Source of the DNA: Amoebophrya sp. A120
Taxonomy: Eukaryota > Protista > Dinoflagellata
Direction: 5' to 3'
Length of the DNA: 64,000 nt
Assembly (NCBI GenBank): GCA_905178155.1
Contig: CAJINV010000003.1
Span: 8,313,117 to 8,377,116, forward strand
Positions within the stretch are counted from its first letter, which is position 1; every line of letters starts with the position of its first letter. This document shows, one piece after another, positions 3,001 to 61,038 of this stretch. A model generated the notes under the pieces. It saw only the letters and a list, made by a program, of their open reading frames with translations. It was not told where the DNA came from and made no database searches. The position numbers were made by a program, and so were the translations under genes.

Positions 3001-6000
3001 GCAAGGGGGCGGGGGCGGGGTGTTGCCGGCATGCATCAGGGGAACGTGGCGGGCGCCCCCCCGCCGCGGCGGGAATATTGCCCGCCTTGGCTCTAACTAC
3101 CGTTCGAAAAACGAGGAGCTGCTGCAAAAGATAAAATTGCCCGCTCGGGGCACAGCTCCCCCACCGGCCTTGTGGGTGTGCTTGGGTGGAGGCGGCGGCC
3201 GTTTCAACATCCCCCGCCGGCCCGGCCAGGTTCCGGGTGCGCCTGTATCCAAGGTCTTAGCCCGCGGCCGGCCCCGGGCTTCCGTGTGTGTTCCCGCAAG
3301 GCTTCGCGGTATGGAAGCTTTGGTTGTTGACCTTCCCAGGGTCGGGTCGATGCTTGTTCACCGGGCAAAAGCCAAGGCGCCGGCGAGCCATCGGCCCGAC
3401 TCGGCCTGTAGTTCAAAGCGCAGGCAATGCTAATGCGCGAAAGTGCTGGAAAGGGGCCACGCCCACGCGCAAGGGGGCGACGTTGCTAATTCACTGCCCT
3501 CCCACCGCGCCCGCCATCAAAAGCAAGGGCAGACATCAGCGGCGCCGGCTGCGGCCCGCTCCAACATTGACTGCATGCCGGCGCGGCGGCGGCCGGCGCC
3601 GTCCGGCTTGGGCGCGTGTGTTCTTTATCGCCAACAAGCTGGCGGGCGGCCAGCGAGCGCCTTCGGGCTGTGCCCGCGCACGTTCCTTCGTGCGGATTTT
3701 CGATGCTACCGCGAGGCGTCGCGATGTTGCGTTTCTGGGTCCCAAGCACCAGAAAGCACGCTTTTAGCACGTTCCGCAGGGTTCCGTTTTTGTACTTTGT
3801 CCCACCATACTGTCTACCGTTCGAAAAACGAGGAGCTGCTGCAGAAACTGCGAAAGCGGGTGCGGACGCTGGAAGACGAGCTCGAGGATGCGCGCGCAGA
3901 GCGGCTGCAGACCACGGAGAGTGGGCAGATCGTGTCGGGATCCAAAGAAACCGACCGCATTGTGCTCGCGCTCAACCAGGCAAACACAAACTACAAAATC
4001 GTGCTGACCCGGTACCGTAACTTCTTGCGGCAGCTCGAGCAGGACATGGCGAAGCGCAGCGATGACCTGGGGGGCGAAGAAGCAGGAGAGGGTGGCCAGC
4101 ACGCGACGAACAACAACAAGCAAGCTCTGGGCACGAAGTTTAGCGATCTGGCTGCGCTTGAGCGCGTGTGGAAGCGGTTTCAGGACCTGATGCAGGCTTT
4201 CGATAAGATCTCGGACTGTTCCCAAGGCGTGCGCCAGCTCGCCGGGGACGCGGCCAGGAAGCTTGCGCTCAGCAGCACTGCCCAGTCCGGCCAACATCCC
4301 GCTGCGAACTACGGCTGCTCTACCACTTCTGCTTCTCAACAAAGCACAATTGGAACCACTCCGAAAAATATTAACCTGTTGACCACGCCTGGGCTACTTG
4401 CAAGGAAGGATAGTCAACAACAACAAGATTCCGCTCGTGAAGATTCCGCGGACGTGACGAATGCGCGCCTCAACCGGCGCATCTTAGAGCTCGAAGCGCA
4501 GTTGCGCGGCGAGCATCGGCAGATGACAGGAAGCGCGGAGAGCTCCCCAGCGAAGTGGAGCCAAGCGTCTTCCCAAGTCGTCGGTACAAGTAGTGGCGTC
4601 CAGCACGCAGCGCCGGCCGCTGCGTCGTCTTCCACCTTCGCCAAGTTGGCCACGATGAATAATAGCTCGACCATATTGAGAGGAAAAATTCCCCCTCCCC
4701 ATATTGAAAAGGTATGTTTCCAAAAATTTGCGTTGCAGATTTGAGGCCACAAATCATATCTGTGTTGCAAGAAGACAAGGGCAGAAGCTTCCGCCCCATT
4801 ATGGAGGCGATTTGTCATGCTGTTGGGCCTAAAGGGGGTCCGTTTCCCATGCTGAACTGCTAGACCCGTACGCCACTACCCAGCCTGGGGATCTGGCCGC
4901 AGTGCCTCTCTGCAATACAAAGCTGATTTGTGGCCGCAAATCAGCATCACAAATTCGGCGAGATCAGCATCGCAAATTTTCGTTTTGATATGGGGAGGGG
5001 GGATGTTTCATTTTGATAGACCACGACCTCCTCGTCCCTGCGCACCACGCCCACATCTACGTTGCAGGCGCCCGGTTCCGCGGCCACCTCTCAAATGCAT
5101 GACCTCAAGGTGCAGAACATGCAGTTGCGGTCTCTAAACAAATACCTCTCGGGAGAGAAGGACCGCTGGAAGAGTGAAACGGAAACGGCAAAGACCGAGG
5201 TGGCTACTTTGCAAGCGCGCTCGTCTGAACTGCAGACCAAGCTGCGCCTCGCAGAAACTGCCTTAATATCGGAAGCACGCCAGGCCCAGAGCGGTCAGTC
5301 CAGCAGCACTTCCCGTGATGTGTCAACAACAGCATTGAACGTCGTAGACGAGGACCACGGACGGCAGGCTGGTGAGACTAGAACACGCACAAGCTCTTCC
5401 TTCGATGAGACGATGAAGGTCGAGGATCCGTTTCTTGCGTCTCCTGCAAAAACAGATAAGAATGTTCCAATGAAGAATTCGGACTTCAGCGACGCGCATT
5501 ACTTTTCCGGCAGAGTGCAGCAGTTGCTGGACCGCCAGCAAATGGAGAAAAAACGTGGTCCCACCTCTGCAGCAGGGTTCTCCTCGAACACGGCAGGAAC
5601 ATTTTTGCCAGACCGCAGCGAGGAAGATGATCAACAACAGTTGGATCATCGGGCGGAGCAAAATCGAAATGCAGCTTCCTTGTTCTGGAAGGAAGGCAAT
5701 CAGTTGGCTGCGTATGCGTCCAAGCAGCAGGCCATTGTCGACAAGCAGCGCGAAGAAATCGCAGTGCTGCGTTTGGAGCGGGAGAAGCTGGAACAGGACT
5801 TGCAGGAAAAGCACGTGGAGAGTAGTGAAATGCGCGAAAAATTGGGATCAGTAATGGCAGCGCGGCGCGACGCGGACCGGAACTACGCTCAGGCACAGAA
5901 GATGGTTTCTGATCTCGAGTCTCAACTGGCGCAGCAGCAGCGGGAATTCGACGAGAGCATGTGGATGAAGGGGGCGACGCTGCAGCTTGCAAAGGGGCTC

Positions 6001-59900: not shown

Positions 59901-61038
59901 AACAATTTTTCCGCCACTATGCAGCGGTTTTTGACATCCAAAACCGTCGCGTCGGACTCGCTCCGCTGAAGAAGGACATGAAAATGGCACAACGGGACCT
60001 GTTCTTCGGTATCGGTACGACTACGACAGGACAAGACCCACCTCCGGCGAGTGCTACCTCCGGGACGACTCCGGGGACAGCTAGCCGCTCCTCGACCGCA
60101 ACTGCCCGTCGCGGCCAGGTTGGTCACCCCAGTTCGTCTCTAGTTCAGCACGCACTCAAACCTCGGCTTGCACCCGGGCTAACCTATGCTGAAGATGTGG
60201 TGAGCTCCGCGAGTACACCTGGTGCAACAGGGGCGGTTTCCGGGATAGATATATCCCGCAGAAAAACAGTAGCACATGGACGATTTACATTTTTTCTAAA
60301 AATGGTTTGCACGAAAAGAATCACACACACGCTATGGCGATACAAAAGATACTTTGCATGATCGCGGAGATGAAGAACAACGGGGGCGGGGCTGGGCGTA
60401 CCATCTTCAAATCAAACGTGCTGGAGAATGTATGTGTTAGCTGTTTTTCTTTATGATGCGGCAAAGGCTTCTTGACCATAGCCGACGAGGTGCAGGACGA
60501 CGAGGGGAATAGGCAGGCTACCTCGCCTGTTGAAAGTAGTAGGAGTGCTTCCGCTTCTTCGCGTAAAGCTTTAGGGGGCTCTCGCGGCCGGGGTGCGCGA
60601 GTGGGACCACCGCCGAGAAGATACGTCACGCGCCCGTCTTCAGCGTCCGCCCCGACCTTGGGGTCCTCGTACAACAGTCCTGCCCAGGGTAGGGCGAGCA
60701 TGAGCAAAGCCAAAGTCGGGCTCATTGGATTAAGCAACGGTTTGGCGGAACTCGAACGAAACGCCTACGGATTGACCCATGCGCTGGCAGAGAGCTGCGA
60801 CTCCGGAAAGCCGATTGGTCGAACTCCCATGCCGAAATGCCAATACTTCTCCACCTTCGATTTTTGCAAGCGTGAACCTGCCCTGGCCTTCCATTTCTGC
60901 GCGCGCAGTTGCGGACTCTGTGGCGAGGAAAGAATACCCCCAAAAAAAGTTGTACACCCACACCCGCCAGATGAACAAAATTCAACTAAAATTTGTGTTG
61001 CTCAAAAAGCTAAAGTTGTCCTTTCACTAAAAACTTAA
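56927..61038 (+). CDS. Pepsin-family (A1) aspartic protease with C-terminal ShKT-like domain
   Basis: [26 protein letters not shown], flap TITYGTG, FDGILGL, second catalytic IALDTGSS, WILGQQFFRHY..FD..NRRVGLA; tail C..C..C..CARSCGLC. Introners at 57974, 58522 and 60252; GT-AG introns at 58866-59293 and 59581-59781. Start and extreme 3' end uncertain. Confidence 0.88.
57974..58312 (+). mobile_element. Introner, family B
   Basis: Right end GAGGGGGGAATTTTCCTCACAATA is shared with the ends at 22559 and 4674. TSD ACACG/ACGCG. Removing 344 nt restores D(T/A)TTITYGTG. Confidence 0.85.
58522..58803 (+). mobile_element. Introner
   Basis: TATCCTGAGGAAAAACCCACCCACACCAGAGT / ACTCTGGTGTGGGTACGTTTTTACTCAGGACA. 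TSD CAACC at 58517-58521 and 58804-58808. Confidence 0.9.
60252..60458 (+). mobile_element. Degenerate introner
   Basis: TATCCCGCAGAAAAACAGTAGCACAT / ATGTGTTAGCTGTTTTTCTTTATGATG. TSD eroded. Element + 5 = 212 nt joins ORF 59786 to ORF 60472 in frame. Confidence 0.65.

Follow-up and report, generated by a model that had tools for sequence, protein, structure and literature searches.

Inserts with inverted ends in the window

The window, that is, the whole stretch of DNA analysed here, comprises 64,000 nucleotides of contig CAJINV010000003.1 (positions 8,313,117 to 8,377,116) of the dinoflagellate Amoebophrya sp. A120. Its genes lie on the + strand, with products that include a kinesin, a pyridine nucleotide-disulphide oxidoreductase, a thioredoxin-domain protein, an L7Ae protein, an ion channel and an aspartyl protease. 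Two kinds of interruption break these genes: GT-AG introns, and short inserts that are richer in AT and have inverted ends. The inserts, here called elements, are our subject. A sequence-only reading of the window had assigned them to unrelated introner families that share one symmetric end motif, TAT-N5-G-N-AAAA, proposed as a bipartite recognition signal for one transposase family or for an RNA-excision machinery. We find that the elements carry TAT ends inside a strict 5-bp duplication, and that their removal from RNA likely follows constant offsets from those ends.

As a comparison set we used 138 loci fetched with the repeat pattern of one family from one metagenome-collection assembly (433 kb after merging); the same kind of repeat pattern gave zero matches in viral contigs. 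The set stands in for genome-wide logos and is centred on family F0, and family weighting was used against this bias. Families were built from TAT elements of at most 500 nt, giving 18 multi-copy families (at least two copies each) in the 433 kb, and a profile search found 376 copies. Exon calls by a coding model, with strand calls coherent along loci, placed 231 of the 376 in exons. The RNA evidence consists of assembled contigs from one study (two samples); the joints concern window positions below 44000 only, and joint figures are given among the joints listed. Two raw-read RNA runs gave 14 and 154 reads, all partial, and left the genes uncovered. Since the contigs splice GT-AG introns, they were judged to be complementary DNA.

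TAT ends and a 5-bp duplication

All 13 ends quoted in the sequence-only reading are present at element termini in the window, where the full motif occurs 17 times compared to 1.7 ± 1.3 in 100 dinucleotide shuffles (maximum 5), about ten-fold over chance. A motif-blind scan of the window (at least 20/30 inverted matches and at least a 4/5 direct repeat) gave 21 matches, seven of them with a perfect 5-bp repeat, and six of these seven start with TAT. When the 433 kb were scanned for at least 21/30 inverted matches and a perfect 5-bp flanking repeat, 260 of 295 segments started with TAT; in the non-redundant set TAT was found at 252/274 left and 255/274 right ends. A first, looser inverted-repeat scan (448 matches, no signal) was dropped. 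Repeat lengths 4, 6, 7 and 8 yielded no comparable TAT class in the 433 kb. At length 6 (32 matches), none of the top classes started with TAT versus 260/295 matches at length 5, and the length-3 matches were the same elements displaced by one. Variable 3-5 nt duplications were rejected because only a repeat length of 5 bp yields TAT starts. Among the 376 copies, the flanks agree at 5/5 positions in 269 and at 4/5 in 62.

The remainder of the motif is less uniform. In the family-weighted logo, TAT reaches ~99%, G at position 9 (G9) 51%, and A at positions 11-14 57-87%, while by direct count TAT is present at 679/728 ends and TAT-N5-G-N-AAA at 476/728, with 0 fits in six families. The expectation that TAT, G9 and the A-run all persist is thus borne out for the near-universal TAT, but G9 and the A-run hold for some families only; what persists in an unbiased sample is the TAT ends and the 5-bp duplication. 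Positions 4-8, described as free, are indeed loose, with a within-family substitution rate 0.81 of that of the element body, although position 4 is mostly C/G and position 5 essentially never T. The corresponding ratios, which mix selection during transposition with selection after insertion, are 0.38 for TAT, 0.39 for positions 9-10 and 0.34 for positions 11-14; with variation low there and not at 4-8, the bipartite shape holds. TAT was intact at 539/576 ends of copies classed as exonic (288) versus 13/14 ends of those classed as non-exonic (7 copies, too few for a comparison), with 69 copies undetermined. The end motif as first described is the already published core, somewhat over-specified.

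Some young-looking copies with near-perfect ends have flanks alike at three or fewer of five positions (loci L043, L004, L010 and L013, in merged coordinates), one of which separates the SNF2 part of a chromatin remodeller from its helicase-C part. Such copies may have arisen as hybrids when neighbouring copies recombined.

Removal from RNA at a fixed register

Twelve joints skip an element plus 5 nt. Eight were read from listed contig joints, two of these from the 14 letters between 20862 and 21553; two come from adjacent pieces of one contig, and two follow by arithmetic, as a 424-nt contig piece leaves 713 = 499 + 214 nt skipped. With k as the number of upstream-copy flank bases kept in the transcript, diverged flanks give k = 4 for the element at 7228, k = 3-4 for 21152 (in 2/4 runs), k = 4-5 for 38329, k = 3-5 for three further elements and k = 1-5 for one. 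The sole register compatible with all 12 joints is k = 4, which element 7228 gives in 4/4 runs by a joint, 7226>7464, that allows no slide. The intron likely is N-TAT...ATA-NNNN, cut one base before TAT and four bases after ATA, at constant offsets. The two offsets add up to the length of the duplication (1 + 4 = 5), so that removal leaves the exon free of a scar in any frame. Joining was precise even at elements whose flanks are alike at 1/5 positions, which means that the repeat does not serve as the signal.

Two simple routes to such joints were rejected on the register: integration reversal, which would give k = 0 or 5, and microhomology joining. Exonic copies that have three or fewer flank matches and keep open frames number 16/227. 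A stop-codon test on 20 diverged copies, too few to decide, gave one stop under k = 5 and none otherwise, and a frame-rescue search for very old introns was abandoned, being swamped by background with other trinucleotides outscoring TAT. TAT is kept in 22/24 RNA-verified ends and the strict pattern in only 10/24, and removal tolerates TAC or CAT at one end and the loss of G9 or the A-run; the full bipartite motif is thus not what removal from RNA requires.

One superfamily with internal 9-mer arrays

Long alignable stretches connect F0/F1, F4/F15, F5/F7/F11/F17 and F8/F14, and the exact sequences TGTCATGC and TGTGATGC are each present in 14/18 family consensuses. An internal 9-mer, YTGTVWTGC, occurs 930 times over 63.7 kb of element sequence versus 7 times when shuffled. 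The common repeated 9-mer and the alignable stretches contradict the view that the families are unrelated; nearly all are one superfamily with repeated internal 9-mers common to them. The 830 sites outside elements (2.2 per kb) probably include uncatalogued copies.

The 9-mers have a preferred spacing: 18 pairs of the same direction, in 11/18 consensuses, lie 30-33 bp apart (permutation mean 2.7, 0/5000 as high), and in many families the first 9-mer is centred near 36-37 or 46-48 bp from the end. Such a spacing is what a protein that binds double-stranded DNA would be expected to impose, and transposase binding sites come in arrays in Tn7 or Mu. Private substitutions amount to 2.0-3.4% in the 9-mer versus 3.1% in the body; being near the body rate, they give the 9-mer the appearance of a transposition signal. 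That the terminal 14-mer might have been copied from the internal 9-mer site was a weak proposal: the best offsets, 0 and -2, both score negative.

From these sequence features, one DNA-binding, integrase-type transposase likely moved the elements, and the shared ends likely reflect one transposase family because of the strict 5-bp duplication and the shared 30-33 bp arrays. In this respect the proposed signal for one transposase family is partly supported, but the full motif is not needed for removal from RNA.

Some F0/F1-ended elements with perfect 5-bp duplications contain 200-700 bp of unrelated sequence (L045 4001-4972, L029 3862-4492, L028 571-1051); a transposase open reading frame (ORF) was not seen in these inserts.

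Both orientations relative to host genes were found in 14/16 families with exonic copies (29:32 for F0), and the 5´ and 3´ end logos of 227 exonic locus copies are alike. The signal thus is symmetric and usable in either orientation, as had been proposed.

A model for insertion and removal, and its alternatives

We lean, by a little, towards a reading in which a ruler-like RNA cut-and-join independent of GT-AG removes the elements and one integrase-type transposase acting in trans spread them. The transposase would recognise, on double-stranded DNA, both the TAT-N7-AAA ends and the arrays of internal 9-mers, and would insert the element with a 5-base stagger. Copies then sit in coding exons in either orientation, as observed, and the mature transcript lacks N-TAT...ATA-NNNN, as seen for the product. 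For this, pairing between the two ends, or a protein that bridges them, would hold them side by side, and the cuts would fall at set distances from UAU/AUA, whatever the bases at the cut. G9, the A-run and the internal arrays would act chiefly in transposition, and TAT/ATA in transposition and removal alike.

Several observations weigh against this reading. The transposase was not found among 26 window ORFs, 60/285 long locus ORFs and five long TAT-bounded segments, and no catalytic factor for removal was identified. Passages of Farhat 2021 (PMC7789003) report no transposase in A120, argue against general mobilisation by a transposase, and give splice sites as variable relative to the hairpin. 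Orientation is skewed in F1 (20:8), F2 (26:12), F5 (2:10) and also F6. The two ends show no G-U excess (316 G-U-compatible mismatches versus 303 in the mirror class, p = 0.63, 227 copies), including in the oldest third of copies, and predicted terminal pairing is near zero for three of the 12 verified introns (21152, 22275 and 38329). RNA pairing of the ends thus has weak hints only, in minority substitutions in the repeats (143 vs 109, p = 0.04) and in the 12 verified introns (17 vs 7). Finally, the exact register comes from one fully diagnostic and two bounding joints, in contigs that drop rare variants.

With more reserve, we consider that the cut-and-join might amount to a second, non-spliceosomal splicing system, with a -1/+4 ruler tuned to the 5-bp duplication of one superfamily, an independent invention of the 3+5 logic of Euglena introns. 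Such a system may use a transposase-derived end-binding protein.

The same -1/+4 rule could be applied by a modified U2-type spliceosome without U1, in which a protein adaptor reads UAU/AUA, an explanation we find rather doubtful. Canonical introns are spliced in the same transcripts, and passages of Farhat 2021 (PMC7789003) list for A120 most spliceosomal proteins and U2/U4/U5/U6, with no U1; part of a review likewise has tunicate non-canonical introns excised by the spliceosome. However, neither cut shows a base preference in 227 exonic copies (first intron base G65/A60/C51/T51), the AG excess at the 3´ cut being slight and non-significant (23/227 vs 15.8 expected, p = 0.07), and identical 5´ and 3´ logos in both orientations leave little room for a branch point or pyrimidine tract.

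We judge it improbable that the ends are read on DNA during transcription, with a transposase-derived bridge over which the polymerase skips the loop or which directs a cut in the nascent RNA. The 9-mer is absent from 4/12 verified introns and single in another 4/12, element sequence is found in RNA contigs, and plain integration reversal predicts k = 5 or k = 0, both rejected. This explanation does accommodate the full strand symmetry, the lack of a G-U excess, the fact that even copies predicted to pair little in RNA are removed precisely, and internal sites near three-turn spacing.

Excision from DNA in one life stage, as for the internal eliminated sequences of ciliates, is highly improbable. 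Symmetric ends with a loose bipartite consensus would suit it, and k = 4 would arise on one strand if a symmetric DNA cut were staggered by 3 bases, but the corresponding k = 1 product is absent among the joints listed, and DNA contigs span the elements at full depth, retaining them at ~41-43x (36150-39280 at 41x; the summed DNA depth on elements is very high). We know of no germline-soma split in this lineage. Lastly, hairpins with direct repeats are the usual substrate of template-switch artefacts and all RNA data here are short-read assemblies, but we give hardly any credence to reverse-transcriptase template switches as the source of the joints, given a joint (7226>7464) with no shared letters, a constant register, joint depths equal to exon depths (45/45, 50.8/50.8, 36.3/36.3), and a frame shift upon element retention in 10/12 cases.

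Features of the window

Table 1. Elements of the window and an example of an internal array. Flanks are left/right; skips are in nt; the element rows carry no strand (.).
Positions	Feature	Ends and internal sites	Flanks	Setting	RNA or reading frame
4674..5018	element F4		GACCA/GACCA	kinesin gene	RNA removal, skip 350
4760..4952	example of 9-mer array	forward 4760, 4812; reverse 4912, 4944 (last pair 32 bp apart)		inside element 4674
6924..7150	old element, F8-like	left end TAC	CAGAA/CACAA		RNA keeps upstream base 3
7228..7459	old element F0		GGTAT/CGCGG (1/5 alike)		joint 7226>7464 sets -1/+4
7570..7688	element		CCGTC/TCGTC		RNA removal, skip 124
18196..18349	element	right end TGT		within canonical GT-AG intron, protein disulfide isomerase-like gene
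20863..21130	element F0	right end CAT (inward)	AGCTG/AGCTG		RNA removal
21152..21549	old element		GATAC/GCGAA		RNA base 5 from downstream copy; k = 3 or 4
21645..21859	element F13	no G9-A4 motif	GGAGA/GGCGA		RNA removal, skip 220
22275..22559	element		TGTTT/TGTTT	gene resembling histone H2A by eye only	RNA removal, skip 290
24574..25020	element, F0-like		TGCCT/TGCCG		longest open frame with element + 5 out; no joint among those listed
25234..25490	element F0		GGTCG/GGTCG		no joint among those listed
29472..29622	element F2		CTTTG/CTTTG		long frame with element + 5 out; no joint among those listed
35097..35410	element F0		GCGAA/GCAAA	ion-channel gene	RNA keeps upstream base 3
35968..36177	element F7		GATCT/GATCT		RNA removal, skip 215
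38329..38822	old element		ACGTT/CGTGT (1/5 alike)		removal inferred via 424-nt contig piece; k = 4 or 5
39256..39464	element F5		GTCGT/GTCGT		removal inferred, same contig as 38329
41692..41842	element		TGATC/TGATC		long frame with element + 5 out; no joint among those listed
44534..44847	degenerate element F4	right end CAT	CAGAA/CCGAG
50997..51173	element	F2-like left end; probable right end TGT, right boundary less certain	TTGCC/CCGTG
57974..58312	element		ACACG/ACGCG	aspartyl protease gene	long frame with element + 5 out
58522..58803	element F3	right end TGT; 5 internal 9-mers	CAACC/CAACC
60252..60458	old element	right end CAT; G at +10	AGATA/CGGCA		long frame only with element + 5 out
60935..61529	candidate element	left end TAC	AAGAA/ACGAA

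The window also contains repeats of other kinds. An 858-bp element at 43009-43866 has near-perfect 90-bp inverted repeats starting TTAGGGCGGAAAAA, a 5-bp duplication (AGCAT) and no 9-mer. It matches the end type, TTA plus two purines, that a passage of Farhat 2021 (PMC7789003) gives for strain A25; diverged copies occur in DNA and RNA contigs, and its removal was not seen among the joints listed. A GC-rich tandem-repeat segment of ~2.9 kb with an assembly gap (53006-55916), whose imperfect inverted repeat begins TTAATAGTATTCCGC, probably is another transposon type. In the kinesin gene, a 30-nt exon stretch occurs three times (at 2129, 3097 and 3814; span 2129-3843), with two GC-rich inserts of ~0.9 and ~0.7 kb between the copies. 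At 9930-10652, two exact copies of a direct repeat, 51 nt or longer (9930, 10602), surround a segment that closes with a lone F2-type right end at 10601; RNA contigs break at the repeat, so that the segment may be left out of the RNA. An intergenic inverted repeat at 52365-52671 has 153-bp arms, 98% perfect, with 1 nt between them, and the 1.3-kb canonical intron at 16329-17619, spliced GT-AG in RNA, contains many short degenerate, CCTTCTGAAGG-like repeats.

Significance and relation to known systems

Farhat 2021 left open where tens of thousands of non-canonical introns begin and end and how they are removed, and the fixed register addresses the first of these points. The rule N-TAT...ATA-NNNN enables exact re-annotation and supplies exact substrates for extract and reporter tests. 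It also rules out a simple reversal of integration as well as joining driven by microhomology, and it accounts for the tolerance of exonic insertions. If true, the ruler makes exonic insertions harmless in either orientation and in any frame. The internal array offers a probe for finding the transposase or binding protein. Neither a fixed register nor an internal motif was found in the literature searched, which included passages of PMC11282704 and PMC12005148 and stopped short of Farhat figures S19-S25, Fig. 3 and part of the Gozashti supplement. The register likely is a rule of scar-free splicing that had not been described before, and the array of spaced internal sites also appears new.

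The elements almost certainly belong to the same system as the A120 introner elements, for which passages of Farhat 2021 (PMC7789003) describe repeats of TAT, seven less-conserved bases and at least three As, direct repeats of 3-5 nt, for which the legend of Fig. S19 has 5 bp, 1954 families, and a border position that is unknown. Common to both, so far as those passages go, are TAT ends with an A-run (which some families here lack), short direct repeats, removal from RNA at non-GT-AG borders, and many families. The elements differ from that description in the strict 5-bp duplication, the cut fixed at -1/+4 and the 9-mer array, which is absent from the published text in those parts. Compared to canonical U2 introns, they lack GT...AG borders: the diagnostic intron at 7227-7463 reads TT..CG, and the 227 copies show no preference.

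Ginger2/TDD elements have TGT termini. Profile-found copies here have TAT at 698/752 ends and TGT at 4. The 5-bp duplication falls in the 4-5 bp that the relevant passage gives for Ginger2 (PMC10045372). For IS3EU/GingerRoot the same passage gives TA..TA termini, occasionally TG..CA, and usually a 6-bp duplication; the TA..TA termini are shared, but the duplication here is 5 bp, so that the elements belong in full to neither group. In the parts of Gozashti 2025 (PMC12130899) that concern A120, family 38 is a terminal-inverted-repeat element of ~810 bp with a 5-bp target site duplication and TA/TA termini, whose final class is Ginger although it lacks Ginger termini, and whose integrase-like ORFs resemble Copia/Gypsy. 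By comparison with that description only, the elements here are shorter (110-500 bp) and non-coding.

The closest likeness in cutting geometry is to the nonconventional introns of Euglena, for which passages of PMC12501133 describe CAG/CTG with 3- and 5-nt spacers, as shown by knock-in tests, abundant direct repeats, a suspected origin from miniature inverted-repeat transposable elements, and unknown machinery. Both systems, on that description, lack GT-AG and place a pair of mutually inverted trinucleotides at set distances from the cuts, one distance differing from the other, but the pair here is TAT/ATA with distances of 1 and 4, as read from transcript assemblies only. Introns of the Euglena type need end pairing for their removal and are released as circular RNA; in the elements here the ends show no G-U excess, and predicted pairing is weak in 3/12 verified introns. 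Given the unrelated lineages, the likeness would likely be convergent.

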